Positions 13,513 through 56,325 of a stretch of 64,000 nucleotides of DNA are shown piece after piece. The notes beneath the pieces were generated by a model, which was given only the letters and a program-made list of their open reading frames with translations, was not told the DNA's origin and did not search any database. The position numbers and the translations under genes were made by a program. The stretch covers positions 8,457 through 72,456 of the forward strand of contig JAKFVN010000016.1 in assembly GCA_021732145.1 (NCBI GenBank), written 5' to 3'. The DNA is from Alphaproteobacteria bacterium (GTDB lineage Bacteria; Pseudomonadota; Alphaproteobacteria; UBA9219; RGZA01). Each line of letters starts with the position of its first letter. Position 1 is the first letter of the stretch.

Positions 13513-13728
13513 TCTTGGATAGGTTACAGGGGTATGCAGCAGGTACATTCAGCGGTATTGTGTGTTTAGCCATTTCTGTATGCGAGAATCGCTTAACCAC
13601 AATACAACTTATGGTTGCATAATAATACCCCAATAAATTGTGGCAATAAATTTTTCACAACTCTTGGTTGAATAACGGATTGTGTGGTATTTTGGCTGCT
13701 ATGTATGCGGGGCTTATCAAGCTGCTAA

Positions 13729-14001
13729 TCAGGCTGTTGGTTTTAAATCCAAAACCAGCGCATGAACCCGTTCCTTCATTTCATCGGCCAGCAGACTGTA
13801 TACCAGTCGTTGCTGCGCAACGCGGCTAAGCCCGTTAAAAGCGGATGAAGTCACAGCAAGGGTAAAGTGCGTTTCACCGGATGGATGGGCACCTGCATGC
13901 CCCGCATGGCGGTGGCTGTCATCGGTCAGCAAAAAAGCTTCCGGCGACAGGTTTTCGCGGATTTTTTTTTCAATACGTTGGGCGTAGATGGCATCTTTCA
14001 T
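13729..14001 (-). CDS. BolA family protein
   Basis: LLTDDSHRHAGHAG...ETHFTLAVTSSAFNGLSRVAQQRLVYSLL; 90 aa. Confidence 0.85.
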   Translation of the reverse strand: MKDAIYAQRIEKKIRENLSPEAFLLTDDSHRHAGHAGAHPSGETHFTLAVTSSAFNGLSRVAQQRLVYSLLADEMKERVHALVLDLKPTA

Positions 14002-19646: not shown

Positions 19647-20762
19647 CTATGGCGGCAGCGCTGGGCCTGTGCGCCGTCTATCCAGCTGCGGCTCTCGCGG
19701 CGCATTCGCATCAAGCGGATTGGGCAAGGTCTTCGGGTCAACGCCCGCTGCTTTTAAAACATCAACAATAGTTGTTGTGAGTGGCCGGTTCACAGGGCCA
19801 AATCCATTGGGCTGATTATTTTGCCATAACTGCACACCGCGCCATTCACCGCCGGTGGTGTGATGCGCATGCGCCGCTGTAATGCCGCCCGACACATGCA
19901 ATTCGCGGTTATAGGTTCCGCTGGTTTGAATGCCCCTATCGCGGCCATTGCGCAGGCCTTCCAGATTATATTGCGATGCATTGAGTATGCCAGCTGGGCC
20001 CGTTAATTGAACGAAGGTGCCATTGTCAATTCGTTCTTCGCCAATCACGCGGGTAAGTTTAATATCGTCTATCTGCCCCGGCTGGAAACGGCTGGCGCGT
20101 AAAATCGCCTGCTTTTCTGCTTCGGGCATGGGCGCTGATGTGATGGTACGCGTTGTTACCGAACGGTTGAGCGTTGTGCCCGGCACGGTTGGCCCCGTTA
20201 CGCCTTTATCCAATGCATCGCGCGTGGTTGACATGATATTTTCAAACACATCACCAACACCGTTCAGTGAACGCTCGGCTTCACGGTCTTTGCCATCAGG
20301 CCCTTTGGGCCCTAACACCAATGCCTGATTCCAATCACCATCATTGGCTTGCAAGCGAACTTCCCTGCCATCCGCTTTGCGAATGGTCATATTGGAAAAG
20401 CCAATTCTGTTATAAAACACATTGTCGCTGGCATTTGCGGTTTGTGCGCGAAATCCTTCCAGCATCATCGTATCCCCGTTGGGGTACCTTAATTCTATTC
20501 GAACATTGCGGTCTCTGCCCGGGTTGTTGGCTGCATTCGGAACAGCGCCGTTTGGAAAATCACGCACATGTTCGCGAATGGTCATTCCGTTTGGTGTCAT
20601 GCCAGCTGGCGGCGCGATAATGCCTGCGGCGCGAAGTTGTTCCGCCAGCGGCCCTGCCTGCGCATAAATCTGGTCAACCCATTCGCGCGGAACACCTTGC
20701 GCTGGCAAATTCCGCGTGCTGGTGCGCTCTGTGATGACGGTTGCGTTTACCTGGTCGGCCAC
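19647..20762 (-). CDS. Hypothetical protein (371 aa)
   Basis: Long ORF, no signal peptide. I recognise no domain. Its stop is 14 nt from the cobT stop (convergent). Confidence 0.5.
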   Translation of the reverse strand: MADQVNATVITERTSTRNLPAQGVPREWVDQIYAQAGPLAEQLRAAGIIAPPAGMTPNGMTIREHVRDFPNGAVPNAANNPGRDRNVRIELRYPNGDTMMLEGFRAQTANASDNVFYNRIGFSNMTIRKADGREVRLQANDGDWNQALVLGPKGPDGKDREAERSLNGVGDVFENIMSTTRDALDKGVTGPTVPGTTLNRSVTTRTITSAPMPEAEKQAILRASRFQPGQIDDIKLTRVIGEERIDNGTFVQLTGPAGILNASQYNLEGLRNGRDRGIQTSGTYNRELHVSGGITAAHAHHTTGGEWRGVQLWQNNQPNGFGPVNRPLTTTIVDVLKAAGVDPKTLPNPLDANAPREPQLDRRRTGPALPP

Positions 20763-28485: not shown

Positions 28486-29799
28486 ATGGAAGCTGATCCA
28501 CTCCTCCTTGCCCGTATCCAGTTCGCTGCGAATATTGCATTTCATATCTTATTTCCCGTTATCACCATCGCGCTGGGCTGGATTTTACTGTTTTTCAAGC
28601 TGCGATTTTCAACAACCCAAGATAAGAAATGGATGGATGCCTATTTCTTCTGGACAAAAATTTTTGCCCTCTGCTTTGCCATTGGCGTTGTGTCCGGCAT
28701 TACCATGTCTTTCCAATTTGGCACCAATTGGCCGGGTTTCATGCAAAAAGTGGGTAATATTGCGGGGCCGTTATTGGCTTATGAAGTACTGACCGCGTTT
28801 TTTCTGGAAGCGACATTTCTTGGCATCATGCTGTTCGGGTTCAAGCGCGTGAAGCCGTGGATACATACCTTGGCCACCCTTCTTGTCGCCGGAGGCACCA
28901 CGCTTTCGGCGTTCTGGATATTGGCGCTGAACAGCTGGATGCACACGCCAACGGGTTTTGAGATGATTGATGGCAAAGCGCATGTCACCAGCTGGTTTGA
29001 AGTCGTCTTCAACCCGTCTTTCCCTTATCGTCTATCGCATATGCTGGTGGCATCCATTTTAACGGCGGCGTTTTTGGTTGCTGGCATTTCCGCCTATCGC
29101 TGGCTGCGCCAAGACCGTACACCGGCGGTGATGGCTGCCTTGCGCACCGGCGTGTTTATCGCCGCATTGTTCGTGCCCATCCAAATTCTGCTGGGTGACC
29201 TGCACGGACTGAACACGCTGCAACACCAGCCGCAAAAAATCGCCGCGATGGAAGGCTTGTGGCACACGCAAAAAGGCGCGCCGCTCGTCTTGTTTGGCCT
29301 GCCCAATGCGCAGACGAAGAAAAACGATTTGGCGATTGAAATTCCGCGCGGCGCCAGTCTGATTTTAACGCATGATTTAAACGGCGAAGTAAAAGGCATC
29401 AATGAATTTCCTGATAACCATCCACCCGTGCCGCAGGTGTTTTGGGCTTTTCGCATCATGATCGGAACAGGGCTTGCCATGCTGGGCATTTCATGGTGGG
29501 CGGCGTTCGCGCTGAAGCGCAAAATGGATATTTCGCCCGTCATCGCAAAATTATTGGTCGCGATGAGCTTTTCAGGCTGGATTGCAACCTTGGCAGGGTG
29601 GATGGTCACCGAAATTGGCCGCCAGCCCTGGCTGGTTCAGGGCATTTTAAAAACAGCAGATGCCGTGTCGGCTGTGCCCGCCCCCATGCTGGGCGCAAGC
29701 CTTGCGATGTATCTTGCCATCTACACATTCCTGCTGGGCGCATTCATTCACACATTGTTTTACTTGGCGCGTAAAGCCGGAAACAAGGAGCACGCATGA
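28486..29799 (+). CDS. cydA: Cytochrome bd-type quinol oxidase subunit I (short Q-loop, CioA-like)
   Basis: LARIQFAANIAFHILFPVITI, YEVLTAFFLEATFLGIMLFG, GWMVTEIGRQPW; 437 aa. Confidence 0.9.
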   Translation: MEADPLLLARIQFAANIAFHILFPVITIALGWILLFFKLRFSTTQDKKWMDAYFFWTKIFALCFAIGVVSGITMSFQFGTNWPGFMQKVGNIAGPLLAYEVLTAFFLEATFLGIMLFGFKRVKPWIHTLATLLVAGGTTLSAFWILALNSWMHTPTGFEMIDGKAHVTSWFEVVFNPSFPYRLSHMLVASILTAAFLVAGISAYRWLRQDRTPAVMAALRTGVFIAALFVPIQILLGDLHGLNTLQHQPQKIAAMEGLWHTQKGAPLVLFGLPNAQTKKNDLAIEIPRGASLILTHDLNGEVKGINEFPDNHPPVPQVFWAFRIMIGTGLAMLGISWWAAFALKRKMDISPVIAKLLVAMSFSGWIATLAGWMVTEIGRQPWLVQGILKTADAVSAVPAPMLGASLAMYLAIYTFLLGAFIHTLFYLARKAGNKEHA

Positions 29800-30806
29800 C
29801 CGAACTGTTTGCACATGGCACATGGTTGCCGCTTACCTTTGCAGGGTTGATGGGCTTTGCGATGCTGATTTATGCGATACTGGATGGTTATGATTTAGGC
29901 GTTGGCATGTTGCTGGCCAAAGCCAATGATGATGAAAAAGACCGGATGATTGCATCGATCGGCCCTTTCTGGGATGCGAATGAAACATGGCTGGTGCTGG
30001 GCGTTGGGTTATTGCTGGTGGCCTTTCCGGCTGCGCATGGAATTATTCTGACGAACCTTTACATGCCCGTTGCCATCATGCTGCTGGGCATTATTTTGCG
30101 CGGCGTGTCGTTTGATTTCAGGGCCAAAGTCGTCGCCGATAAAAAGCATTTCTGGAACAAGGCGTTTCTGGCGGGGTCGCTGATTACCGCTTTTTCGCAG
30201 GGCGTGATGCTGGGCTTTTATATTCTTGGCTTTGAACACAGCATGGGCGCGATTGCATTTTCAGCGCTGGTGGGGCTGTGCGTAATTGCGGGTTATTGTT
30301 TAATTGGCGCTTGCTGGCTGATTTTCAAAACTGAAAATGAACTGCAAAAAAAGGCTGTGCGCTGGGCCAAAACCGCATTGCTGGGAACGGTTGCCGGCAT
30401 TGCGCTGGTATCGCTGGCAACGCCGCTGGTCAGCCCGCGCATTTTTGCCAAATGGTTTGCCCTGCCGGATTTTTTCTGGCTGCTCCCCATCCCGTTGATG
30501 ACCGGATGCTTGGTGCTGTTGTTGTGGCGCATGCTGAACACATTGCCGCGCGAAGCAGATAAATACTGCTGGGTGCCCGTAATCCTCTGCGCTGGTATTT
30601 TCACCCTGTGCTTTTTGGGAATGGCTTACAGCTTTTACCCTTACATCGTGCCCAACCAGCTCACCATCATCGAAGCATCCTCCGCTCCTGAATCCCTGAT
30701 GGTGATTTTAATCGGGGCGCTGGTTGTGCTTCCCGTGCTGCTGGGCTACACGTTTCTTTCCTATCGCATCTTTCATGGCAAGGCCAAAGACCTCACCTAC
30801 GATTAA
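29796..30806 (+). CDS. cydB: Cytochrome bd-type quinol oxidase subunit II
   Basis: YAILDGYDLGVGML, IGPFWDANETWLV; ATGA overlap with cydA; polytopic membrane protein. Confidence 0.9.
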   Translation: MTELFAHGTWLPLTFAGLMGFAMLIYAILDGYDLGVGMLLAKANDDEKDRMIASIGPFWDANETWLVLGVGLLLVAFPAAHGIILTNLYMPVAIMLLGIILRGVSFDFRAKVVADKKHFWNKAFLAGSLITAFSQGVMLGFYILGFEHSMGAIAFSALVGLCVIAGYCLIGACWLIFKTENELQKKAVRWAKTALLGTVAGIALVSLATPLVSPRIFAKWFALPDFFWLLPIPLMTGCLVLLLWRMLNTLPREADKYCWVPVILCAGIFTLCFLGMAYSFYPYIVPNQLTIIEASSAPESLMVILIGALVVLPVLLGYTFLSYRIFHGKAKDLTYD

Positions 30807-30883: not shown

Positions 30884-33211
30884 CTAGCCGCCGCCATCGC
30901 CGCCGCCATCACCGCCGCCGCCATCACCGCCACCGTCGCCGCCGCCATCACCGCCACCGTCGCCACCACCACCGTCGCCGCCGCCGCCGTCACAGCCACA
31001 GCCATAGGTGCATGGCGGAGGTGGGGGTGGGACATAGGTGCATTGGTTCTGCTCGGTCACGCGCTCTTGGTTATCCGGGCAGGTGCGGGTTGTCGTTACA
31101 ACAATCTGGCCGCTATAGCCTGGAGGGCATGCACGTGTCGTCACATTGGTCGACGGGGTGCATACTGGCTTGCACTGATTGTCAGTGGTCACCTGATTAC
31201 GGCCTGCGCCATTATTCGAACCATCACAGATATGCGCGGTGGTCGTATTAATATACCCTTCGTAACCAGCCGGGCATGGGCCACAGGTGGTGTTGGTGGA
31301 AGGGGTGCAGGTTACGCGGCACTGATTGTCAGTGGTTACCTGTTCACGGCCTGCGCCATTATTCGAACCATCACAGATACGGGTTGTGGTGGTGTTGATA
31401 TAGCCTTCCTGACCAGCCGGGCATGGGCCGCAGGTGGTGTTGGTGGAAGGGGTGCAGGTTACGCGGCACTGGTTGTCCACGGTCACAATATCGTGGCCAG
31501 GGTCACCGCACATGCATGTATCGCATACATGCTTGGTAGTGGTGCGGATATACCCTTCCTGACCAGCCGGGCATGGGCCGTCCACATAGCTTTCGCTTGG
31601 TACGCAGGTTTGGCTGCGGCACTGGCTGGTGTCGCGGGTTACTTCACTGCGGCCTGCGCCATTGTTCGAGCCATCGCAGATGTGCTTGGTGCGAACGGTC
31701 ACGGTACCGGTCTGGCCTTCAGTGCAAGGCTCGGTTGTCACAACCTCAGAAGGCGTGCAGCTCGTGCAGGTGTTCGATACTTCTGTTTCTGCGATGGTGC
31801 AGTTGCAGGTACCTGGGTTGGTTGGGGTTGTATCGATCGTATTGGTATCACCGACAGCTTTGGTGGCCACGCCGCGGGTCGGCATGCTTTGAGCGGCTGT
31901 CTTCTTGGTGTAACCAACGGGGATGCGGCCATAGGTTGCACGAACGCCGCCATCAATACATGTACGAACCTGGCGCACGGTAATCTTGCCGGTTTGGCCG
32001 GTTGGGCAATCCTTATCCACATTGCCAAGATCCTTGGTTGGAACGCACACGCAGGTATTGGAAACCTGAAGTTCGCTCACAACGCCTTGGGTGCCAGAAC
32101 CTTCTGGGCAAGAACGGTAGTTCTTCTTGGTAATGGTGCCTTCCATGTCGCCATCTGGGCAAGCCGCGGTGAAGGTATCGCCAACTTGGCCTTCTTCACA
32201 CAGGTCGCCGGTGGTGCCTGGAGCTACGCACGTGTCGCTGATGATGTCCATCGAAGGAGCAATCGCATCGTCACCTTGGCAGATTTCGCGAACGATAACG
32301 GAAACGCTGCCAGTCCAGCCTGCTGGACGACCCATTTCCTGGCAGGTCTTGGTAGCAGAATAGGTTCTGTCAACGCAGCCCGTCACGGTTTTCCAAGACT
32401 GGTTTTGGCAGGTCATGCGGAAGTCTACGAATACAACGGTGCCAGCCCCAACGGTTGCATTGTTCGCAGGAGGAGGAATGGGTACGTTTTCAGTGCCGCT
32501 TGTGCCGCAAATCCAGCGCGCGGTGAAGGAGCCAGGGTTGGTGCCATCGCGTGGCTCAAGGTAACCAATGTCATCGCGCGAGATTGGCAATGACACGGGG
32601 GTATTGGTCACGGCAACGGTTTGACGGCCATTGGATGTGCTGGTCGAACCGCTGGTGCCGCCCGAAATCGTGCCCGATGAAGAAGAGCTGGTCGAATAGT
32701 AATAGAACCATGATGAAGAGGTGGTGGTGGTGGTGATGGTTTGCGCAAACCATTGGTTGGTGTTCGTAGAGTTCACCAATCCCTGCAAGCGCCATGAACC
32801 TGCCGAGCAGGTTTGGGTTGGAGCCTTAACGTCTGATACTTGCAAGTTGCGCGCAATACAGCAATTTGCAACGTGAACGTTCGCCGGGGTATTGGTCAGG
32901 AATGCTGTCCATTCTTCGGACGTGTTGAACGGGATGAACAATGGGCTTGTGATACCAGCAGCATCAACATAGTGACATGCGCCGTGCACGTATATTGGTG
33001 TCTTGCTGATGGTCACATCCGGTTCGAGGCGCGCGCCAGTAAAACGATCGCTGGTGATGAGCTGGCCATTTTCGCTGCGCACAGGGCACTGCGTATACGT
33101 CGTGCTGCCCTCTGTAACAGGCTTGTCGATGGAACATTGCGTTGATACTTCAGCTTGCGCTGCACCACACAGCATCAAGGAAACAATCATCGAGAGAATA
33201 ATATTGCGCAT
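30884..33211 (-). CDS. Secreted Cys-rich modular protein, 775 aa, with C-terminal (GGG[G]D)n tail; paralog of 37620-41720
   Basis: Signal peptide MRNIILSMIVSLMLCGAAQA|EV. The N-terminal ~300-aa domain is shared with the larger paralog (ACHYVDAAGITSPLFIPFNTSEEW, NCCIAR, RDDIG, ARWIC, FVDFRMTC). Seven 4-Cys modules follow, including two adjacent near-identical 49-aa units (147-nt period, 31201/31348). Then PPPPPPCTYGCGC and a 35-aa Gly/Asp tail. Confidence 0.85.
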   Translation of the reverse strand: MRNIILSMIVSLMLCGAAQAEVSTQCSIDKPVTEGSTTYTQCPVRSENGQLITSDRFTGARLEPDVTISKTPIYVHGACHYVDAAGITSPLFIPFNTSEEWTAFLTNTPANVHVANCCIARNLQVSDVKAPTQTCSAGSWRLQGLVNSTNTNQWFAQTITTTTTSSSWFYYYSTSSSSSGTISGGTSGSTSTSNGRQTVAVTNTPVSLPISRDDIGYLEPRDGTNPGSFTARWICGTSGTENVPIPPPANNATVGAGTVVFVDFRMTCQNQSWKTVTGCVDRTYSATKTCQEMGRPAGWTGSVSVIVREICQGDDAIAPSMDIISDTCVAPGTTGDLCEEGQVGDTFTAACPDGDMEGTITKKNYRSCPEGSGTQGVVSELQVSNTCVCVPTKDLGNVDKDCPTGQTGKITVRQVRTCIDGGVRATYGRIPVGYTKKTAAQSMPTRGVATKAVGDTNTIDTTPTNPGTCNCTIAETEVSNTCTSCTPSEVVTTEPCTEGQTGTVTVRTKHICDGSNNGAGRSEVTRDTSQCRSQTCVPSESYVDGPCPAGQEGYIRTTTKHVCDTCMCGDPGHDIVTVDNQCRVTCTPSTNTTCGPCPAGQEGYINTTTTRICDGSNNGAGREQVTTDNQCRVTCTPSTNTTCGPCPAGYEGYINTTTAHICDGSNNGAGRNQVTTDNQCKPVCTPSTNVTTRACPPGYSGQIVVTTTRTCPDNQERVTEQNQCTYVPPPPPPCTYGCGCDGGGGDGGGGDGGGDGGGDGGGDGGGGDGGGDGGG

Positions 33212-33507: not shown

Positions 33508-34467
33508 TTAGGCGGTGGGTGGAAGCGGTTGCGCGCGACGTTGCGCAATTAGTTGCGGCGTAACGCCCGCAACATCATCAAGGAATCTATTCGCAAGCTG
33601 TTTGCGTTCATCCGATGAATTCGCGCGAAGGAATGCAACTTTTGGTTTTCCGTCTTGAATATATCCCAGCGTCAATACGAATACGCCATTTGGAAATTGC
33701 TGTGGCACGCCGCTGTTTGGCGGCAGTTTGTGAAATTGCGATCGATCAAGCGTTCCTGTCTTTGCAAAAAAGACCTCGCCATTGCGCGGCGCGGCCGGGT
33801 TTTGTATGGCGCGATCCGCCAGATAACGGTGTGTCGTATGCTGCGGATTGGCGGGGCTTGAAAGCTGGCTCAGCGTTCTTCCATTATCCAGCTTATACAG
33901 ATACTCCATCAGATGCGCGATATGCAGTGGCGATGCCTGCGATGTGCCGTGACGCAATTTCGTATCCGCAATGCCGGATGTATCGCTGATGCGCGATCCC
34001 GCGATACCCAATTCTTTTTGGTACTTGGCAAGCTCCGCGCGGTAGGTTTCATAAAAACGCTGCACGCTGGGGTTCATCGTATTGGAAAGATGATTGTCAT
34101 TGCCGCGGTTCAGCACGCCGCCCTGCATCGTCATCGGGCGAAAATTCGCCGCAAAGGTATTCGCACCCGGATAATTCAACGCACGCGCCACTTCGACAAT
34201 GGTCGCGTCATTATGCGATTGGCTCATCATGCGCGTGAGACGCCCCATGTTTGCCTGCACGTATTCAACGCCACGCGCGCGCGCAATCAGCGCCAGCGCG
34301 GCGATTTTGGTATTGGATGATAAATGGCCAAGGGTATTTACATCGTGGCCCTGTTCCGGGCGGCTTGAATGGATGTCATAGACAAGATGCTGGTGCCGCC
34401 CCAAAATACGATTTTGTGGCAAAGGTTCGTTATGCACACTTGGCAATATCCTGCTGACCATCAGCAT
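33508..34467 (-). CDS. Hypothetical protein with SxxK / KTG motifs (possible penicillin-binding/beta-lactamase-fold serine hydrolase)
   Basis: LSSNTKIAALAL (S51-x-x-K54), SHND (84-87), FFAKTGTLD (K236-T-G). The motif spacing is atypical for S11 peptidases or class A enzymes and no signal peptide is evident, so the call is weak. Confidence 0.35.
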   Translation of the reverse strand: MLMVSRILPSVHNEPLPQNRILGRHQHLVYDIHSSRPEQGHDVNTLGHLSSNTKIAALALIARARGVEYVQANMGRLTRMMSQSHNDATIVEVARALNYPGANTFAANFRPMTMQGGVLNRGNDNHLSNTMNPSVQRFYETYRAELAKYQKELGIAGSRISDTSGIADTKLRHGTSQASPLHIAHLMEYLYKLDNGRTLSQLSSPANPQHTTHRYLADRAIQNPAAPRNGEVFFAKTGTLDRSQFHKLPPNSGVPQQFPNGVFVLTLGYIQDGKPKVAFLRANSSDERKQLANRFLDDVAGVTPQLIAQRRAQPLPPTA

Positions 34468-34735: not shown

Positions 34736-36049
34736 ATGAAAACGACACGCCGCGACTTTATGATTGGTGCAGGCTTATTGGGCAGCGCGCTCATGCTTGG
34801 CAGCAATCCGCTTGCCGCAAGTAACGGGGCAGCAGAAACAGCAGCATCCGCGCCCGCAGCGGTCAAGCCAACCCTTAAAGGCAAGCTCTTCGCATTCGGC
34901 CTTGGCGGAAAGAAATTTCCCGGCAATGAAAACAAGGAAAAGAAAACCACCAGCATTCTGACGACATTCGATTTGGAATCGCGCGAGATGAAGCAAACCT
35001 CGCTCAATATGGGTGAAGGCCATGCTGCAATGGGCGCGGGCGATAATCGCATTTTATGCGTATCGCACCACAAGCCTGTTTCGATGATGGTTGATAAAGA
35101 CCACAAGGTGATCGCAACCTTCACCGCGCCGGAAGGCTATTTGTATGGCGGGCACGGTTTGGTATTCCCCGAGCGCAACCAGTTTATCCTGCCCATGCGC
35201 GCATCAAAGCCGCACACTGCTGCCGATACGGGCCGCTTTGAGGTTTATGACCTCACCTCCCTAAAGAAGCTGGATATGATTGATAGCGGTGGCATTCAGC
35301 CGCATGAAATTCACAAAATTCCAAATAACCCAGCCGAATTGGCCGTGACCCATTACGGCGATATTGCCGACCGCAGGAAGCCGCTGGAATTCAATGTCAT
35401 CGATACCAAGCTGACCATTCTTGACAGTCAGACGTATAAGCCAAAACGCCATTATGACCAGAATGAATTTAACGCCATGTCCACCCACATGCGCGTTTCA
35501 AAAGATGGCTGGGCATATATCGTGCTGACCCAATACGTCACCTTTGAAAAGCCGGAAAATCTGAAGCCCGGCGAAGAAGCGGATAAAATCGCGCTCGCTG
35601 AAATGGAACGCATCTTCAAGCAGAAATGGGATTATGCTGTTCCCAGCATCGCCTTGCAGGAAAAGCATCTGGCGGTTGGCCTGCCATTCCTGCGCATCAA
35701 TACGCAAACCGGCGAGCGCCAGGTGATTTATCTCGGCAACAAGCATCATATGCGCTCGCAATCGGTTGCCTATAACACGGCGATGAACACCGCAATTGGC
35801 CTTTATTATCACTCCGATAACCTTGTGCTGCATACGCCCGGCAAGGACGCGGAAATCGTCACCAATGACCAGCTGAAGCTGAGCGGCATTCGCGGCGTTG
35901 CGGAAATTCCTGGCACCACCTGCATTGCCGTGTGCGGCACTTATTACGATGTCGCCGTGATGGATTTGAAGACAAGAGAAGTGCTCGCGCAATTCAAATC
36001 ATCGAATTACGATTCAACGCATCTTTATCACGATGCGGATTTAGCTTAG
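34736..36049 (+). CDS. Tat-signal protein, DUF1513-like (beta-propeller-like)
   Basis: MKTTRRDFMIGAGLLGSALMLGSNPLAA twin-arginine signal. GYLYGGHGLVFPERN, GRFEVYD, SGGIQPHEIHKIP and ELAVTHYG resemble the DUF1513 pattern as I remember it. Confidence 0.55.
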   Translation: MKTTRRDFMIGAGLLGSALMLGSNPLAASNGAAETAASAPAAVKPTLKGKLFAFGLGGKKFPGNENKEKKTTSILTTFDLESREMKQTSLNMGEGHAAMGAGDNRILCVSHHKPVSMMVDKDHKVIATFTAPEGYLYGGHGLVFPERNQFILPMRASKPHTAADTGRFEVYDLTSLKKLDMIDSGGIQPHEIHKIPNNPAELAVTHYGDIADRRKPLEFNVIDTKLTILDSQTYKPKRHYDQNEFNAMSTHMRVSKDGWAYIVLTQYVTFEKPENLKPGEEADKIALAEMERIFKQKWDYAVPSIALQEKHLAVGLPFLRINTQTGERQVIYLGNKHHMRSQSVAYNTAMNTAIGLYYHSDNLVLHTPGKDAEIVTNDQLKLSGIRGVAEIPGTTCIAVCGTYYDVAVMDLKTREVLAQFKSSNYDSTHLYHDADLA

Positions 36050-36148: not shown

Positions 36149-36167
36149 AACAAAAAGGCGTAAAAAC

Positions 36168-36197
36168 AAAAACCCCGCTAGACATAGCGGGGTTTTT
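36168..36197. terminator. Bidirectional rho-independent terminator
   Basis: CCCCGCTA-GACA-TAGCGGGG (8-bp stem, 36173-36192), A-run before and T-run after. Lies between convergent genes 34736-36049 (+) and 36218-36562 (-). Confidence 0.8.
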
Positions 36198-36217
36198 AAT
36201 TGGTCGATTTAATTTAT

Positions 36218-36562
36218 TTAGCTGCCATTGCCTGCGCCGGGCGCTGAAAGCGTGCCATCGGCATTGCAGGTAATTCCGCTCTTTAATGGGCGGCCTGGGT
36301 AATCCTCGCAGATGCGCTTCATCACAAATCCGCCTGTGCTCGCTACAGGCGGGGTTTGAATTTCAATGACTACCTTTTTTTCTGCGCCAACGCACTGAGT
36401 GTCGCCTTGGCCTGCATTATCCAGTTGCGTTACGCAAATCTCAGCGGTTTTTCTAGCAGTGATAATGGTTGTATCTGCTTTAGCTGCATTACCAGTCATG
36501 GCCCATGCAGCAGCACCAACTTCTAATAATATTGCGCCAGTGCGCACAGCTTTTCCTAACAT
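36218..36562 (-). CDS. Small secreted protein (114 aa, 4 Cys)
   Basis: Signal-like N-terminus ...AAAWAMTGNAAKA|DTT and its own terminator. I recognise no domain. Confidence 0.5.
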   Translation of the reverse strand: MLGKAVRTGAILLEVGAAAWAMTGNAAKADTTIITARKTAEICVTQLDNAGQGDTQCVGAEKKVVIEIQTPPVASTGGFVMKRICEDYPGRPLKSGITCNADGTLSAPGAGNGS

Positions 36563-36880: not shown

Positions 36881-37387
36881 TTAATCCAGAGTAATCGTTG
36901 GGCAGCTGCCGGCGTTACCAGCGCGACGGCTAACAACGCTACGCGGAATTGTACCGCCAGCTGTTGTGTTTCCGCCTGATACAACGATGCATTCACGGCC
37001 GTTAAAAAATTGACCGCGTTGACGGAATCTCAGTCTTGGATGTGCATCGTAAGAGTCAACTTTCTGGTAGTGTGGGCCAGCTTGCTTGGTGCCATTACCT
37101 TGGTGTGGATTTTGACCCCAACCTACATCGTTGAAATCACGTTGGGTACGTGCACCTGGAACACGCTGGAAATGATTGCGGCTAAGGCAGCGGTTGGTGC
37201 CATCTGGGCAAGCTTGTGCAAGCTGCACCATTTCGCTGCGTGAAAGCGTTACGGTTGTTGCCTTGCCGGATGGGCCAAATGCTTCGATAATTGGCTGGTC
37301 GCGGTCTACTGCGCCGCGTGCAAAACCAAGAATGTTATTAAAAACTGCATTTCCATCAACTGAAACATTATCAAGTGTTACTGCCAT
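36881..37387 (-). CDS. Hypothetical protein (168 aa, 4 Cys, no signal peptide seen)
   Basis: Clean ORF with its own terminator, located between the two Cys-rich giants. I recognise no domain. Confidence 0.5.
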   Translation of the reverse strand: MAVTLDNVSVDGNAVFNNILGFARGAVDRDQPIIEAFGPSGKATTVTLSRSEMVQLAQACPDGTNRCLSRNHFQRVPGARTQRDFNDVGWGQNPHQGNGTKQAGPHYQKVDSYDAHPRLRFRQRGQFFNGRECIVVSGGNTTAGGTIPRSVVSRRAGNAGSCPTITLD

Positions 37388-37619: not shown

Positions 37620-40600
37620 CTAGCCGCCGCCATCGCCGCCGCCGTCACCGCCGCCGCCATCTCCTCCGCCGTCGCCGCCACCATCACCACCGCCGCCGTC
37701 ACCACCGCCGCCATCGCCACCTACCACGATAAAGGTGCAGCTATTGCCAATGGTTTCTTCGTTAATCAGACCCGATGGGCAAACGCGCACATTGCGCTTG
37801 GTGATGATACCCATATATCCGGGCTGGCATGCCGCGGTGAAGGTATCGCCCACTTGGCCTGGGTTACAGCTGATAATCGGCGTGCAGGTATTGCTTACCG
37901 TTTCTTCGGTAATCGTGCCAGACGGGCAGGAACGCACATTCCGCTTGGTGATTACGCCGGCATACCCTTGCTGGCAGGGCGCGGTGAAGGTATCACCCAC
38001 CTGGCCCGGGGTACAGGCGTTCACGCACGTGTTGCTGATTTCTTCTTCCACTTCATTGCCGGATGGGCATTGGCGCACACGGTGCAATGTGATGATGCCG
38101 GTTTGGCCAGTGGGGCATGCACGTGTGTATGGCTCGCACGTCGCGCCGGGAACGCAGGTGGCACGGCACTGGTTGTCCGTGGTTACCGTGGTGCGGCCAG
38201 CGCCATTATTACTGCCATCGCAGACATGCGCGGTGGTGGTACGAACATAGCCTGACTGACCTTGCGGGCATGCCGCATCGGTATAGTTCGATGACGGCGT
38301 GCAATTCACGGTGCATCGGTTGTCGGTCGTAACAATGTCACGGCCCGCGCCATTGTTCGAACCATCGCAGACATGGCGGGTACGAGTGCGAATAACTCCC
38401 GATTGACCGGATGGGCATGCGCTTTCCACCACATCGTTCGATGGGGTGCATGCCTCATGGCAGGCTGGGCCAGTTACCGTCACGACATCACGGCCCGCGC
38501 CATTATTTGAACCATCGCAGACGCGCTCCGTGCGCGTGGTGCGACCGCCAATTTGACCCACGGGACAGTTTTCAAGCACCGCCGTTGCGCCCGGCGTGCA
38601 AACGACGCGACACGCTTCGCCAGTTACCGTCACGACATCGCGGCCCGCGCCATTATTTGAACCATCGCATACGCGTTCCGTGCGCGTGGTGCGACCGCCT
38701 GTTGAACCCGGTGCGCAATCTTCGATCATGACTGAAGTGTTTGGCGTGCACGCCGTGCGGCAGTGATTTTTTTCCGTGACTACATCGCGGCCCGCGCCGT
38801 TATTCGAACCATCGCAGACACGGCTGGTCTTCACGGTGATTTCGCCGGTTTGGCCGGTTGGGCATGCGCGGGAAGTGGTTGTTACCGCTGGCGTGCAAGC
38901 GGAGCGGCATTGATTATCCGTTGTAATCACATCACGGCCTGCGCCGTTATTGCTGCCATCGCACACGCGGGTGGTGGTGGTGCGAACAACCCCGGTCTGG
39001 CCCGATGGGCATTGCGCATCCGACGTGGTGCTGCCCGCAACGCAAGCGGAGGTGCAGGTGTTGCTTAGTTCGCGGATTTCAATGTCTCCCGATGGGCACA
39101 CGCGGAAGTTCTGACGCGTAATCACGCCGGTCTGGCCGGTCGGGCATGGCGATGTGTAGGGGTTGCAGACAGCGCCCGGCGTGCAGGATGTGGCACATTG
39201 GTTGGTGGTTGTCACCACGGTGCGTCCCGCGCCGCTATTGCTGCCATCGCACAGATGCTGGCGGCGCGTCACGATTTGCCCGGTCTGGCCCGATGGGCAA
39301 GCCGAGCTCGTCGATGTATCCGACGGCGTGCAGGTGGTTATCGGGCGGCAATAGCTTTCGCGGGTGACAATGTCGCGTTCGCCGCCATCAAACCACTTCA
39401 GCAAGGCGTTGTTGCCGGCATCGTACTCATTATCACAGCCTTCCCAGCCGCGCAGCCCCATGCGGCTATGGCATACATGCGTGGTGATGACCTTGATGTA
39501 CCCTTCCTGACCGGCCGGGCAAGCTTCCTGCGTCACGTTGCGTGAAGGCACGCACCCTGAACCGCCGCTGCATGTGTTTTGCGTGGTGGTGACAATGCGG
39601 CCCGCGCCGTTATTGCTGCCATCGCAGACACGGGTGTTGATGGTGGTGATCTGGCCTGTCTTGCCAGCGCCGCAATCCACCGCTGAACGGCTTACCTCGC
39701 CAGGGACGCATCCCGTTGTCGCAGTGCAGCCATTGCTGACCACTTCCTCGGAAATCACACCCGATGGGCATGCACGCACATTGCGCTTGGTAATCGTGCC
39801 TGTCTGGCCCGACGGGCAAGCGGCGGTGAAAGTCTGGCCCACCTGGCCCGGCACGCATGCTTGCACCGTGCAGGTGTTGGAAACCTCAACGTCGGAAATC
39901 ACGCCCGATGGACATGCGCGAACATGCTTCTTGGTAATCACACCGCTTTGGCCTGATGGGCATTCCAGCGCATAGGTATCCCCCACCTGCCCGGCAACAC
40001 AAGCCTGGCTGCACGTGTTGGAAACCTCTTCCTCGGTAATCACACCTGATGGGCATGCGCGAATGCGCTTCTTGGTGATGAGGCCGCTTTGACCATTCGG
40101 GCACGTCACCGCAAAGGTCTGGCCCACTTGGCCAGCACGGCATCCCGGAACGCAGGTATCGCTTACGACTTCAACAACCGTTGTGCCTGCCGGGCATTGA
40201 CGCACATTGCGCTTGGTGATGAGGCCTGTTTTGCCGACGGGGCATTCTTGGGTGAACGTGTCGCCATAGGGGCCAGGCACGCATGGCGCAGCTGCGCAGG
40301 TTTTTGTCACATCGGTTTCAGATGTGGTGCAGGAACAAAAGCCCCAAGGCTGAATGGTATCGCCCGATGGCATTGCCTGAACGCAGGTCTTGGTTTGGCG
40401 CACAGTCCACGTTCCCGTCTGACCCGTTGGGCATGTCTTGCTCACATTGCCCAAATCGGTGGTTGGCGGGCACACGCAGGTATTGGAAACCAGCGTCTTG
40501 GTAATCACGCCGTTTGCACTGCTGCCATCCGGGCAGGTGCGCATGTTTTTGTAAACCGCAGTACCGGTGAAATTTTCACCGCAGCTTTCGGTGAAGGTAT

Positions 40601-41720
40601 CACCCACTTGGCCAGGCGTGCAGGTAACAGCAACGCATTGGCTGGTATCGTCGGTAACAACATCACGGCCAGCGCCATTATTTGAACCATCGCAGACGCG
40701 CGCAGTGGTGCGCGTGATAGTGCCAGTAAAGCCGGTCGCGCACGCAACGGTGGTTGTGCTTGATGATGGCGTGCAGGTGACGGGCGCACGGCATGTATCG
40801 ATCACAACTTGCGATGTGACATTGCCCGACGGGCAATTCTTGGTGTTCAAAACACCAACCGTGCCAACCCATGTGGCGGGATGGTCATTTTGCGAGCAGG
40901 TGCGCGTTGACGCGGTGACCGTTTCAACGCAGGTGTTTGGATCAATCGATGTCCAGTTGCTGCTACGGCATTGCATCCTGAATTCGGTGAATGCGATATC
41001 GCCGATTTCGCCATTAATCACGCCAACGGTGCCGCCGATAATGTCGGTGGTGCGCGCCGTCGTATCCGCGCCGGTGCCGCGCGGCGCAACGCCCATGCAC
41101 TGCCAGCGCGCGAGATAGGTTTCGCTGACGCGCGCGCCAGCCGGGAATGTTGAGCCAATATCATCGCGTTCAACCGGGAACAGGGTAATTGGGTAATCGG
41201 GGTCTTCGGTATTGCCAGTTTCAAGCACGATGGCTGAAGCCGGTGCCTGGCTGACAGGGCGCGCGATATAGGTGGTGGAGCTGGTGGATGCAACCAAGCC
41301 CTGCAAATTCCAACGGCCATGATTACAGCTATCGGCTGGCTTTGGAATATCTGAAACGCGCATCACGCGCGGCACGCAGCATTGCGCAACATTGGTGCCG
41401 GTTGGATGGTTGGCAATGAATGCGTTCCATTCGGTCGAGGTGTTAAATGGAACGAAGATGGATGCGGTGATGCCGCGCGCATCCACATAACGGCATACAT
41501 TATTGATGTTAATCGGCGTGCCGCTCAGGATATTGGTCGATTGCAAGCGCGCGGAATTGAAACCGGCATTGGGCAGGAAATTATTTCCGCCGCCCACGGG
41601 ACAGGTGGCATCAGCTCCCCCAATTGTTGCCTCATCAAGCGTGCAGGTCGCGGCATAGGATACATGCGGCATGCAAAGGAACAGGAACGCAACGAGCAAA
41701 GCTAGAACAGATTTACGCAT
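37620..41720 (-). CDS. Giant secreted Cys-rich modular protein (~1366 aa from ATG 41720) with C-terminal (GGG[G]D)n tail
   Basis: Signal peptide MRKSVLALLVAFLFLCMPHVSYA|ATC (the track ORF starts 20 codons upstream at 41780). The N-terminal domain is homologous to the 775-aa paralog. It is followed by 20 consecutive four-Cys modules (10 with CDGSNNGAGR, 9 with GQVGDTFT..ITKRNVR.CPSG..SNTC, 1 linker module). I count ~98 Cys. The 33-aa Gly/Asp tail ends ...GGDGGG*. Confidence 0.85.
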   Translation of the reverse strand: MRKSVLALLVAFLFLCMPHVSYAATCTLDEATIGGADATCPVGGGNNFLPNAGFNSARLQSTNILSGTPININNVCRYVDARGITASIFVPFNTSTEWNAFIANHPTGTNVAQCCVPRVMRVSDIPKPADSCNHGRWNLQGLVASTSSTTYIARPVSQAPASAIVLETGNTEDPDYPITLFPVERDDIGSTFPAGARVSETYLARWQCMGVAPRGTGADTTARTTDIIGGTVGVINGEIGDIAFTEFRMQCRSSNWTSIDPNTCVETVTASTRTCSQNDHPATWVGTVGVLNTKNCPSGNVTSQVVIDTCRAPVTCTPSSSTTTVACATGFTGTITRTTARVCDGSNNGAGRDVVTDDTSQCVAVTCTPGQVGDTFTESCGENFTGTAVYKNMRTCPDGSSANGVITKTLVSNTCVCPPTTDLGNVSKTCPTGQTGTWTVRQTKTCVQAMPSGDTIQPWGFCSCTTSETDVTKTCAAAPCVPGPYGDTFTQECPVGKTGLITKRNVRQCPAGTTVVEVVSDTCVPGCRAGQVGQTFAVTCPNGQSGLITKKRIRACPSGVITEEEVSNTCSQACVAGQVGDTYALECPSGQSGVITKKHVRACPSGVISDVEVSNTCTVQACVPGQVGQTFTAACPSGQTGTITKRNVRACPSGVISEEVVSNGCTATTGCVPGEVSRSAVDCGAGKTGQITTINTRVCDGSNNGAGRIVTTTQNTCSGGSGCVPSRNVTQEACPAGQEGYIKVITTHVCHSRMGLRGWEGCDNEYDAGNNALLKWFDGGERDIVTRESYCRPITTCTPSDTSTSSACPSGQTGQIVTRRQHLCDGSNSGAGRTVVTTTNQCATSCTPGAVCNPYTSPCPTGQTGVITRQNFRVCPSGDIEIRELSNTCTSACVAGSTTSDAQCPSGQTGVVRTTTTRVCDGSNNGAGRDVITTDNQCRSACTPAVTTTSRACPTGQTGEITVKTSRVCDGSNNGAGRDVVTEKNHCRTACTPNTSVMIEDCAPGSTGGRTTRTERVCDGSNNGAGRDVVTVTGEACRVVCTPGATAVLENCPVGQIGGRTTRTERVCDGSNNGAGRDVVTVTGPACHEACTPSNDVVESACPSGQSGVIRTRTRHVCDGSNNGAGRDIVTTDNRCTVNCTPSSNYTDAACPQGQSGYVRTTTAHVCDGSNNGAGRTTVTTDNQCRATCVPGATCEPYTRACPTGQTGIITLHRVRQCPSGNEVEEEISNTCVNACTPGQVGDTFTAPCQQGYAGVITKRNVRSCPSGTITEETVSNTCTPIISCNPGQVGDTFTAACQPGYMGIITKRNVRVCPSGLINEETIGNSCTFIVVGGDGGGGDGGGGDGGGDGGGDGGGGDGGGDGGG

Positions 41721-41933
41721 CTGGTATGCCTTCTGAAAAAAATTGAGCAAAAATGAATGAATGGTTAAGGAGAGGCTCAATCTATTTTTATGGCGTTATA
41801 ATGGCAAGGTCTTTTTATTGGCGTATCGTAACAATCATTAAAATGCTCTTTGATATTGGGAAAACCAATCGGTCTGTTGATTCGCGATTAGCTGTTCATG
41901 GATTTTCCACGCCGCGCCTAAGCTCACACCTAT

Positions 41934-54167: not shown

Positions 54168-54261
54168 CCCCGACTATATCCCCACTAAATAATGTGAAAG
54201 TTTTATGCTGGTTGAAAGTGAAGCCACGCGTTAAGCTTTGCCTTATATTTTAAGGATAGAC

Positions 54262-56325
54262 ATGGCCGACCAACTTAAGGAGCAGCTGCCGCATACGCAC
54301 ACCGCGTTACCATTATCGCGGGTCAGCACCGTTGCTGGCTATGGCCTTGGCAAAGCGGCCGTGCAGGCAAGCTGGCCACTCGTGCGCGCTTCGGCCGATG
54401 CCCTTTACCGCATCACGACCGAGCTTGTCATGCGCCCCGCCATTGCCGGTATACGCGGCGCGGGCAGCGTCATCGTCGGCGTTGGGTTCCAGCTTCCGGC
54501 CTATCTTATCTACAACCTGTTTGGCCGCCTGCCGTATTACGTGATTGGCAAGCCCTTATTGAAACTGGAACGCCGCTTATTTCCAAAGCGCAGCGATGAC
54601 GTAACCCAGTTCATCCAGAAATTGGACGAACGCTATAAATCCTTCAAAAATTACTGGCATGACACCCGCGTTTACAAGGGCTGGCAGAACGCGAAGCAGC
54701 ACATGAACGTGAAAAGCCTTGAGCATTTCATTCATGACTTCTTCGATGCGCGCATGGAAGGCGTGTTCAAATGGGGCAATGCCCTCACGCCAAACAAAGC
54801 ATTGCTGGCACTGGTTATCTGCTTTGGCGTGCTGGCACCGTTATCGCCCGCGCTTGGCCTTTTGCTGCACGGTTATTCATTCCCGTGGTTCATGCCCGAT
54901 TGGCTGGCGCATGCGGCCCATGCAGCGGGAACGGGCATCTATCAATATGCGCAAGCCTTGATGGCGGCGCCGCTGCCAACCCTTGCCGCAAGCTTGCAAA
55001 GCGGGTTTACCTTTTTGCAAACCACTGCCACCAGTTTTGCTTCCAGTGTGATTGCTGCGCCCGGCCAAACTTTGTTGTCGCTTGTGCCATCGCTTGAAAC
55101 GATCAAGACCATTGCCGTTGAAGCCGTCAAGCTTCCCGTATTGCTCACGGGATTTGTGGCAACCAATATCGCGGCGACATTTTTTCCAAAAGCAAAATTG
55201 CTGCTGCCCGCTGTCTTTGCCGCCTGCGCCAATCAGGCCAGCAAGTCGCCCTTTGGCGGCAAGCAATTGGCGGCATGGTTAACCCACGCGCACAAGCTGG
55301 ATGTCGTGCAGGACATTAAAAATGATGCGGCGTTTGCCGAGCGCAATATCGTAAGGCCGTGGACAAGGCACACGCTGCTTGGGCTTGCCACGCTTGGCAC
55401 GGCGATGGTGGCACCGCCGTTCTTCTGGGCGCCGCTGGCCATTTATGCCACAGCAAAAGGCGCACAGCATTATATCGCAAAGCCCATCGCGCGCACAAAA
55501 ACTTGGCAGAACCTGTCGGGCGCGGTGCGCCATGCGGGCGCAGCGATCGGCAACACCATTGTAACATCGCTTGAAAAACTGCCGCTGCTTGGCCGCGCGG
55601 TTACCTATGCCAAACAGCGCGCGATAGCCATTCACAAGGATGAAAATGTCGTCGACAAAATCGCGGGCGTTGCCGCGCCTTTTGTTGAAAAGTCCGGCCA
55701 GCAATACTGGTCACGCCGCCTTGGCAAAAATGATGCCGCAGCGGTAACGCTGGTTCCATCGCTTCCTGCTGCGCAAGAACAAGCCGCCAACCCCGCAGCA
55801 GTTGAACAAAACCCCACCACGAAATCTCTGCTTGAAACACTGATTGTCTATGGCACCAGCGCAACCGCGCCATTGCTTACAGTGCTGGCAACGCAAAAGG
55901 CGTTCATGGTCGATAAAACACTTGGCAACGCATTATCCTTCATGACCGGCGGACATGAAGTGGCAACGATTTTCAGCGGTATTCTGGCGGCCACCGTCGG
56001 CGTTGCAACCTTTGTCGGCACGACATCGGTTGCCAATAAATTGCCGAACTGGCTGTTCCGCCCTGCCGCCGCAGAGGTAAGTGCGAATGCAAGCAAGATT
56101 GAAAACGCAAAAGGTGCATTGATTGTCGAAGGCGTTGTCATGGGCACCCTCGGCCTTGCGGCATGTGCGCTTGGCGTGCCCGCGCCGCTGGCCCTGGCGG
56201 CAGCCGCCGCATGGGTTGCGCCAACCTTAATCAAAGGGCGCCATCAAATCGCCAGAGCTTATGAACCCACGCGCGCCGAAGCAAAGCCAGCCCGCGCTGC
56301 CGCCACTGTTCCGGCGCAAAGCTAA
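54262..56325 (+). CDS. Hypothetical Ala/Gly/Leu-rich polytopic membrane protein (~687 aa)
   Basis: Many hydrophobic stretches along the whole length. AAGGA SD before ATG 54262 (the track ORF starts at TTG 54238). I recognise no domain. Confidence 0.55.
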   Translation: MADQLKEQLPHTHTALPLSRVSTVAGYGLGKAAVQASWPLVRASADALYRITTELVMRPAIAGIRGAGSVIVGVGFQLPAYLIYNLFGRLPYYVIGKPLLKLERRLFPKRSDDVTQFIQKLDERYKSFKNYWHDTRVYKGWQNAKQHMNVKSLEHFIHDFFDARMEGVFKWGNALTPNKALLALVICFGVLAPLSPALGLLLHGYSFPWFMPDWLAHAAHAAGTGIYQYAQALMAAPLPTLAASLQSGFTFLQTTATSFASSVIAAPGQTLLSLVPSLETIKTIAVEAVKLPVLLTGFVATNIAATFFPKAKLLLPAVFAACANQASKSPFGGKQLAAWLTHAHKLDVVQDIKNDAAFAERNIVRPWTRHTLLGLATLGTAMVAPPFFWAPLAIYATAKGAQHYIAKPIARTKTWQNLSGAVRHAGAAIGNTIVTSLEKLPLLGRAVTYAKQRAIAIHKDENVVDKIAGVAAPFVEKSGQQYWSRRLGKNDAAAVTLVPSLPAAQEQAANPAAVEQNPTTKSLLETLIVYGTSATAPLLTVLATQKAFMVDKTLGNALSFMTGGHEVATIFSGILAATVGVATFVGTTSVANKLPNWLFRPAAAEVSANASKIENAKGALIVEGVVMGTLGLAACALGVPAPLALAAAAAWVAPTLIKGRHQIARAYEPTRAEAKPARAAATVPAQS

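Follow-up and report, generated by a model that had tools for sequence, protein, structure and literature searches.

What kind of protein carries 98 cysteines in 1366 residues, and what could such a molecule do for a bacterium? The question is raised by a gene at positions 37620..41720 of a 64,000-nucleotide stretch of alphaproteobacterial DNA (assembly GCA_021732145.1, contig JAKFVN010000016.1, positions 8,457 to 72,456), here called the window. The answer favored here, to which we give a probability of roughly 0.55, is that the encoded giant protein is exported by Sec and forms a disulfide-stapled rod that acts as a fibrillar-adhesin-like stalk. Its disulfide pairing, its shape as a rod, its place at the surface and its role in adhesion are inferred. 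The gene itself is real, conserved and under purifying selection, and its repeat module and N-terminal domain (the N-domain) are, by sequence and profile comparison, two undescribed domain families. New as the families are, the architecture that they form is of a familiar class and does not amount to a new type of system.

Two domain families in one secreted protein

The gene lies on the minus strand within an open reading frame (ORF) that spans 37620..41780, where an upstream TTG start would give a product of 1386 aa. The ATG at 41720, 20 codons 3' of this TTG, is taken as the start because GAAGG stands 8 nt before it and because the equivalent Met is the start in homologs. The 1366-aa form has 7.2% Cys, 14.6% Thr, 12.3% Gly and 9.5% Val, in agreement with a first-pass annotation of this DNA that had counted ~98 Cys (~7%) in a Thr-, Gly- and Val-rich protein. 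Its parts are as follows.

37620..41720, minus strand: coding sequence of the 1366-aa Cys-rich protein, with ATG at 41720 and stop at 37620-37622
41652..41720, minus strand: predicted signal peptide with n/h/c regions, aa 1-23, cleaved at MRKSVLALLVAFLFLCMPHVSYA/A
40932..41651, minus strand: conserved N-terminal globular domain, aa 24-263, from an alignment of 19 family members
40776..40931, minus strand: degenerate B-like module, aa 264-315, with four Cys (NCPSG...IDTC), joining the N-domain to the array
37734..40775, minus strand: 20 four-Cys modules, aa 316-1329, cut at Cys landmarks
37623..37733, minus strand: C-terminal tail, aa 1330-1366 (37 aa), TFIVVGG(DGGG/DGGGG)n

Secretion by way of a Sec signal peptide had been proposed beforehand and is well supported by the predicted features. 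The peptide MRKSVLALLVAFLFLCMPHVSYA has a basic n-region, an h-region with a mean hydropathy of 3.15 and small residues at -3/-1; it ends in VSYA, followed by A, in a classical Sec n/h/c layout, and has no lipobox. Beyond it, no segment reaches membrane-spanning-grade hydrophobicity (maximum 19-residue hydropathy 1.14). The conserved domain of homologs begins directly after the equivalent cleavage site.

The module array is exactly as the first-pass annotation had described it, with 20 consecutive four-Cys modules (10 of type A, 9 of type B and one six-Cys variant) in the order A B X B B B B A A' A B A A A A A A B B B, as recovered by cutting at Cys landmarks. Type A has the core C-D-G-S-N-x-G-x-G, and one of its 10 copies, A', carries a 30-aa insertion; type B has R-x-C-P-[SAD]-G, and X is the single six-Cys module. 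Modules are 44-52 aa long, with the spacing C-x10-12-C-x15-C-x13-18-C and linkers of 1-6 aa. The long motif strings proposed for the two types stand as consensus sequences and fail as strict patterns, in which form they match 2 modules of type A and 0 of type B. The generic Cys spacing occurs 17 times, compared to a mean of 0.03 (maximum 1) in 2000 shuffles of the protein, and a module hidden Markov model (HMM) finds 20 domains in the ORF (E = 5e-281). Positions C1, C2, G20, C3 and C4 are invariant in an alignment of 62 modules from the giant protein and three homologs, which indicates that types A and B are two flavors of one unit and upholds the earlier suggestion of a single ancestral module. 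Mean protein identity between modules is 58% for A-A, 54% for B-B and 34% for A-B pairs, with corresponding DNA means of 64%, 62% and 54%. Because module DNA identity is only 48-79%, the duplications appear to be old and an assembly artefact is unlikely. Tandem Repeats Finder detects only the C-terminal tail and none of the module array.

The N-domain has 8 invariant Cys and the motif CRYVDARG..F[VI]PFNT..EW.AF..N.P in the 19-member alignment, and AlphaFold models it with a pLDDT of 87.2 and a pTM of 0.77. None of the 19 N-domains has a Pfam match at E <= 10, their profile has no match in the PDB, and Foldseek finds no PDB neighbor for the model (best E 1.5, TM <= 0.15). A C-type-lectin/DUF1566-like reading of F-I-P-F-N-T-x-x-E-W-x-A-F was dropped, as neither Pfam nor the fold search gave a match; lectin-like domains are expected to be plentiful in the PDB.

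Searches with the whole protein and its modules are similarly empty. Pfam returns 0 families for the full protein at E <= 10, NCBIfam returns only a chance match (E 0.32), and in 64 relatives nothing from either database covers the modules or the N-domain. PDB sequence searches with the full protein and the module profile (E <= 10) give nothing meaningful. Foldseek with a module model finds no neighbor in the PDB or BFVD (best E 0.2 and 0.05; TM <= 0.25), the query being a three-module chain, which is less sensitive for a single small domain. The searchable literature has no match for the motif strings or for Cys-rich-repeat keywords. No Pfam or NCBIfam model of EGF, the Myxococcus cysteine-rich repeat or thrombospondin type 3 matches the giant protein or the 64 relatives, so that the mismatch noted earlier for these repeats, and for RTX, holds. 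RTX repeats were rejected since the (DGGG)n tail has a 4-5-residue period and no hydrophobic position, unlike GGxGxDxUx, and has no Pfam match; RTX-type export was rejected since an N-terminal signal peptide is present, whereas type I secretion system (T1SS) substrates have none. That the protein belongs to no nameable family was thus a sound judgment, with the refinement that it holds two novel domains rather than one. Module and N-domain are both confidently foldable and unmatched, which makes them targets for family curation and structure determination.

Eukaryotic extracellular repeats offer some resemblance, and the modules could be diverged Sushi/CCP or TSR domains acquired by horizontal transfer. 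Four Cys in ~47 aa, short linkers and a run of 20, as in the 20 CCPs of factor H, would fit such an origin, and C-P-x-G-Q-x-G...R-x-C resembles the TSR motif C-G-x-G...R-x-R-x-C. When 10 single or double modules were searched against Pfam at E <= 10, the result was scattered noise apart from a sub-threshold Sushi match to a two-module fragment (1/10 fragments, 18.1 bits vs a gathering score of 20.7). This match crosses a module boundary, however, and hhalign comparison, in which the TSR and Sushi alignments were built from sequences verified against PDB entries, rejects both families, with probabilities of 0.5% for Sushi/CCP (vs factor H CCP1-5) and 2.3% for TSR, which also has no Pfam TSP_1 match, even for single modules at E <= 10. 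The module profile finds nothing in the PDB at E <= 10 although CCP and TSR chains are plentiful there, and no CCP or TSR structure occurs among the fold-search matches. Transfer from eukaryotes is therefore close to refuted. Sushi/CCP arrays share a beads-on-a-string arrangement, an all-beta character, four conserved Cys, short linkers and, in factor H, ~20 copies; the giant protein differs in its bacterial host and in modules that are ~13 residues shorter (44-52 vs ~60 aa), with no conserved Trp in types A and B. TSRs share a three-stranded, elongated, disulfide-stabilized module with C-x-x-G...R-x-C in the middle strand, and pilin-class relatives of the giant protein have a W-x-x-W motif, but the modules of the giant protein have four Cys rather than six and no N-terminal WxxW layer.

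A putative disulfide-stapled rod

AlphaFold models three consecutive modules (aa 574-717) with a pLDDT of 91.9 and a pTM of 0.44; the low pTM is expected because the chain is elongated and its units are loosely coupled. Each module has three long strands, b1 (C1 to C2), b2 (C2 to C3) and b3 (C3 to C4). In the wider family, all four Cys are kept in 244/249 full-length module instances, and the sole natural Cys variant has C3 shifted a few residues along one loop. Cys-loss covariation gives no signal as a pairing test, since 244 of the 249 modules retain all four. Four near-invariant Cys at strand ends suggest structural disulfides rather than metal sites. Because strand order places C1 with C3 at one pole and C2 with C4 at the opposite one, C1-C3/C2-C4 pairing is probable, and the sliding of C3 along the C1-pole loop fits it. 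Sushi/CCP domains are characterized by a conserved Trp between C3 and C4 and by C1-C3/C2-C4 disulfides, a pairing that for the giant protein is predicted from strand layout only.

The abundance of Cys could also mark a periplasmic thiol protein, a metal-binding or redox-buffering sink instead of a structural fiber. Such a role would suit a protein with 98 Cys and a Sec signal but no evident route across the outer membrane, and some family members have in their vicinity a DUF1513 gene with a twin-arginine (TAT) signal and genes related to iron or zinc. The modules, however, do not have the CxxC/CxC clusters typical of metal sites; their Cys lie at strand ends of a confident beta model and are near-invariant in the 249 instances, and the same module occurs in pilin-like proteins and in a MIDAS/vWA lipoprotein. 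A thiol sink is thus improbable. Even less probable is a surface protein that binds ice or minerals through flat Thr-rich beta-sheets and an Asp/Gly tail. The Thr content of 14.6%, TTTT-type runs in type A b2 strands and an acidic, Gly-rich tail are compatible with it, but Thr and Val richness is expected in small single-sheet beta modules, and Pfam, NCBIfam and the fold search give no similarity to an ice-binding or biomineralization family.

The structural rod reading has the following steps. The protein would be exported by Sec and then fold outside the cytoplasm, where ~48 disulfides would form in the periplasm. Its head would be the ~240-aa globular N-domain, with a fold that has no PDB neighbor and four disulfides, and its rod would consist of ~21 modules, each a three-stranded beta unit clamped at both poles by a pair of disulfides (probably C1-C3 and C2-C4, one per pole, as judged from strand order). 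With strands of ~9 residues and linkers of 1-6 residues, modules set end to end would extend ~60 nm. They would act as a stalk or spacer that keeps one end of the protein away from the attachment of the other. The N-domain and the acidic Gly/Asp tail would then be the functional ends, one ligand-binding and the other surface-attaching, possibly via Ca2+. By analogy with other proteins that carry the module, namely pilin-like proteins and a MIDAS/vWA lipoprotein, a surface adhesin or coat component, as first suggested, is plausible.

Some modules depart from the four-Cys scheme. A fifth Cys occurs in two type B modules, aa 846-892 (nt 39045-39185, minus strand) and aa 1189-1235 (nt 38016-38156, minus strand), within the motif C-x2-G-x2-C-x-P-Y-[TS], and the pair flanks the run of six type A modules. 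Both extra Cys are kept in the ortholog at locus L006 and in the relative P0001, while P0002 keeps only the first. These residues, together with an odd total Cys count, hint at a disulfide that is long-range or joins two molecules. The type A loop (D-G-S-N-x-G) might be read as EF-hand-like, but this is speculation only and was set aside, as position 12 is not acidic; of 68 loops, 60% have Asn and 34% have Gly at position 5.

Several points weigh against a rod-like adhesive stalk. Surface location and binding are argued by analogy, and disulfide pairing and rod geometry come from strand layout rather than coordinates. Non-consecutive pairing, ~21 times over, would tax disulfide isomerization heavily, and the Cys count of the mature protein, 97 with the two extra Cys and the non-conserved C762 included, is odd. 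The N-domain has no recognizable adhesive family or fold in Pfam and PDB fold searches. For outer-membrane translocation or anchoring, there is no autotransporter barrel, T1SS signal, lipobox or known C-terminal sorting signal, and no secretion system lies beside any family locus examined; secretion systems, Dsb genes and glycosylation clusters are all missing next to the giant gene and next to eight other family loci.

Fibrillar adhesins combine tandem stalk domains with an adhesive domain, and about half of the detected candidates have no known anchor; the survey that detected them (Monzon et al. 2021) used 82 Pfam stalk families (PMC8286594). The giant protein resembles them in that one long chain carries a signal peptide, a globular domain at one terminus and 20-21 tandem small beta modules whose number varies between relatives, and many fibrillar adhesins likewise have no recognizable anchor. 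It differs in that its ~47-aa two-disulfide stalk unit is absent from Pfam, and hence from the 82 surveyed families, and in that its terminal domain matches no known adhesive family and no known anchor motif was found. For bacterial stalk domains the usual means are Ig-like folds, isopeptide bonds or Ca2+, not disulfides, and ~48 disulfides in a single bacterial polypeptide are unusual. The protein could become a test case for Gram-negative periplasmic folding of very large disulfide-rich substrates, and the module could supply a compact, rigid, modular spacer for protein engineering. Its significance is limited in that function is assigned by analogy and that long repetitive secreted proteins are already a familiar class.

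Relatives and the two ends of the fiber

Conservation of the gene is evident from independent assemblies. An identical 1366-aa product is encoded in a Logan assembly from another sequencing run, so the ORF is not interrupted on resequencing, and the window sits on a 774,651-bp ENA contig (ERZ1079237 k127_68826) that encodes the same product; the source samples are ERZ1079237 and SRR30963359. A word-indexed search of 5.8 billion clusters gave only three homologs (1242, 1338 and 918 aa), none with a Pfam domain; the single named one is a 'hypothetical protein' from an Alphaproteobacteria metagenome-assembled genome (MAG). A GTDB scan added an ortholog in a Rhodospirillales MAG (L006), with 1416 aa, 22 modules, 101 Cys, 70% identity and the same tail. 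A homology search with the N-domain alignment yielded a single new protein, which is partial. Intact orthologs with 10-22 modules occur in 5 independent assemblies. Values of dN/dS are 0.16 vs P0001 and 0.21 vs P0002, with dS near saturation, and aligned Cys are conserved at 85/86 and 89/89 positions in two orthologs. Homolog loci are syntenic, with a divergent flavin reductase gene, penicillin amidase and aldehyde dehydrogenase on one side and a heparinase II/III-like gene and purH on the other, as in the window. Scans of viral contigs gave no relatives and hence no sign of phage origin; type-A motif scans of metagenome contigs gave pattern matches and no confirmed relatives.

The module is rare. 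Its HMM matches 168 of 1.84 billion representative proteins at E <= 1e-3, two of them low-complexity false matches, and 36 at E <= 1e-10. An architecture scan of 152 proteins (the giant protein and retrieved matches) separates three classes of extracellular architecture: N-domain proteins, type IV pilin-like proteins and others. Class (i) is defined by a signal peptide, a ~200-240-aa 8-Cys domain with CRYVDARG / FIPFNT..EW.AF and then at least two modules of the pattern C-x10-12-C-P-x-G-x-x-G-x9-C-x13-18-C. The N-domain HMM matches 22/152 proteins, most of which align along the whole domain, with 2-20 modules each; the giant protein, with its N-domain (E 4e-136) and 20 modules, belongs to this class and has the most modules among the 22. 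All class (i) members that have a name are recorded as hypothetical proteins of alphaproteobacterial MAGs. One genome carries several class (i) paralogs, and MAG GCA_010031785.1 has three. Class (ii) comprises ~25 type IV pilin-like representatives of 650-870 aa (N_methyl, PilS, Bundlin and GspG-type matches) with 3-4 C-terminal modules and W-x-x-W in the third strand. The clearest case in class (iii) is P0028, which has a lipoprotein signal (LAFTAC), 7 modules and a vWA domain with DxSxS. This vWA domain matches the NCBIfam model of the Bdellovibrio MIDAS adhesin weakly and over aa 463-567 only (114 bits vs a cutoff of 700). The joining of Cys modules to a vWA/MIDAS domain in P0028 recalls the Bdellovibrio MIDAS adhesin Bd0875, which is 378 aa long and whose description mentions no such repeats (PMC11003981); the giant protein differs from Bd0875 in having no vWA domain.

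Module copy number varies among orthologs and paralogs (22, 20, 19, 17, 10, 7 and down to 2), while the N-domain is retained. A spacer or stalk role for the modules is suggested by this varying number, by P0028, where modules separate the lipid anchor from the vWA head, and by the pilin-like proteins that carry them. One paralog, which the first-pass annotation did not mention, lies in the window.

30884-33211, minus strand: 775-aa paralog with a signal peptide, the same N-domain, 7 modules and a (DGGG)n tail

It also has a Pro-rich linker and its own terminator-like hairpin, and its positional equivalent lies at 17879-20185 in L001. The same 774-kb contig holds a third paralog, P0009 (701 aa), ~440 kb away.

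The N-domain is the constant part of class (i) proteins, and the C-terminus is the variable part. C-termini are Gly/Asp-rich, Ser-rich and ending in Cys (P0002, P0005), acidic-aromatic (P0017, P0019), FrpC-type or absent. Gly/Asp tails like that of the giant protein, also unmentioned earlier, occur in the window paralog, the L006 and L001 orthologs, P0001 and P0014; no other ORF in the family loci examined has one. Tail sites in the window and L001 are as follows.

37623-37733 in the window, minus strand: tail of the giant protein
30887-31000 in the window, minus strand: tail of the 775-aa paralog
13550-13729 and 20000-20185 in L001: tails of two neighboring paralogs

Tail DNA of the giant gene and the window paralog is 89% identical over the last 91 nt, and that of the two L001 paralogs is 84% identical over 183 nt, far above the ~55-60% for modules. 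Such similar tails in neighboring paralogs suggest either homogenization by gene conversion or constraint by a shared partner.

Three relatives (P0007, P0008 and P0018) carry at their C-terminus a full-length homolog of the ~175-aa Ca2+-binding self-processing module of FrpC (SPM; PDB 6SJW, E 1.5e-24 and 1.2e-23). In FrpC, Ca2+ induces folding of this module and self-cleavage of the Asp-Pro bond at its own N-terminus, and the freed Asp then forms a bond with a Lys on a neighboring protein, reportedly only outside the cell and at high Ca2+ (PMC7078468). A terminal module reported to act only outside the cell points to an extracellular, Ca2+-rich destination for these proteins. Alignment of the homologs begins at the Pro that corresponds to FrpC P415, and Ser rather than Asp precedes it, so that FrpC clip-and-link chemistry cannot be assumed. 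Their context differs from that of FrpC in being Sec-dependent and Cys-rich and not T1SS/RTX. The SPM was not found in the giant protein by PDB search of its full length; it has the (DGGG)n tail instead. FrpC-type modules with a conserved Ser-Pro junction in Sec-dependent, non-RTX proteins may be of interest for NeissLock engineering.

These variable ends raise the possibility, which we consider doubtful, that the same rod has the reverse polarity. The N-domain would then anchor the protein to the envelope, through lipopolysaccharide or an outer-membrane protein, and the variable C-terminus would be the business end, which in some relatives would link the fiber covalently to its target through a Ca2+-triggered module. 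A constant N-domain in all paralogs and orthologs, with widely varying C-termini, is in keeping with this arrangement. So is FrpC itself, whose N-terminal part binds the outer-membrane lipoprotein FrpD and whose SPM leaves a reactive C-terminus for cross-linking to other proteins (PMC5233953, PMC7078468). OmpA and LpxR genes also adjoin paralogs of the P0009 branch, along with a PF04120 iron permease gene, but these envelope-gene neighbors may reflect synteny inherited by common descent rather than a functional link. Clip-and-link is unproven in SPM-like domains that follow Ser rather than the Asp of FrpC, and the giant protein has no SPM. The anchor of P0028 is N-terminal, but this protein has no N-domain and is uninformative about what the N-domain does.

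A broader view, also tentative, is that the four-Cys unit is a bacterial extracellular building block, convergent with eukaryotic CCP/TSR domains and used in at least three display systems: Sec-secreted fibers with a novel head, type IV pilin-like proteins and lipoprotein MIDAS adhesins. The variable C-terminus would be a Ca2+-dependent or covalent attachment cassette, represented by the FrpC-like module with Ser-Pro in some members and by the poly(Asp-Gly3) tail in the giant protein. If this is true, the C-terminal cassette would fasten the fiber without any classical anchor.

Genomic setting and neighboring genes

The suggestion that the organism is host- or prey-associated finds no support here. 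The window has the gene content of ordinary chromosome, with aroB, cobS/cobT, purH, atpH/atpA, an rpoH-like sigma factor, cydAB, UDP-glucose dehydrogenase and a GGDEF protein, and the relatives are uncultured Alphaproteobacteria/Rhodospirillales MAGs. Two flanking signals accompany the giant gene.

41779..41807, minus strand: TTGCCA-17-TAGATT, a sigma-70-like promoter match (consensus only) 5' of the start codon
37573..37602, minus strand: intrinsic-terminator-like GC-rich hairpin with A/T runs on either side, AAAAACCCCGGTAGAAATGCCGGGGTTTTTTG on the gene strand

The hairpin AAAAACCCCGGTAGAAATGCCGGGGTTTTTTG lies 18 nt past the stop codon. With its own sigma-70-like site upstream and a strong hairpin after the stop, the gene looks monocistronic, although the promoter scan has low specificity (7 such sites in the region vs 4.5 expected). 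Neighboring genes on the side of the 775-aa paralog, and large ORFs elsewhere in the window, are as follows.

36218-36562, minus strand: 114-aa ORF downstream of the giant gene; its start resembles a signal peptide, it has four Cys and its end is Gly-rich
34736-36049, plus strand: DUF1513 protein with a twin-arginine-like signal (TRRDFMIGAG), adjoining the giant gene
33508-34467, minus strand: 319-aa ORF with no Pfam family, between the two paralogs
28486-30806, plus strand: cydAB (cytochrome bd oxidase), between the paralog and the heparinase II/III-like gene
8765-10603, minus strand: 612-aa ORF with no Pfam family at E <= 1e-5
54238-56325, plus strand: 695-aa ORF with no Pfam family at E <= 1e-5
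19647-20762, minus strand: 371-aa ORF with no Pfam family at E <= 1e-5

A 168-aa ORF at 36881-37387 has no conserved counterpart, and BLAST indicates that the small ORFs downstream of the giant gene are not conserved in L001. The 114-aa ORF is followed by a strong terminator (36167-36198) and has a positional counterpart at 9722-10060 in L006, with a similar EIC...C motif and a G-rich end; BLAST at 1e-3 does not link the two. cydAB is missing at the corresponding position in L001, L003 and L005, which marks it as a local rearrangement or insertion. The 319-aa ORF is conserved in L001 (45% identity) and L006 (72%). The DUF1513 gene adjoins the giant gene in the window, L001 and L006, and the distant paralog P0022 likewise has a weak DUF1513 gene two genes away.

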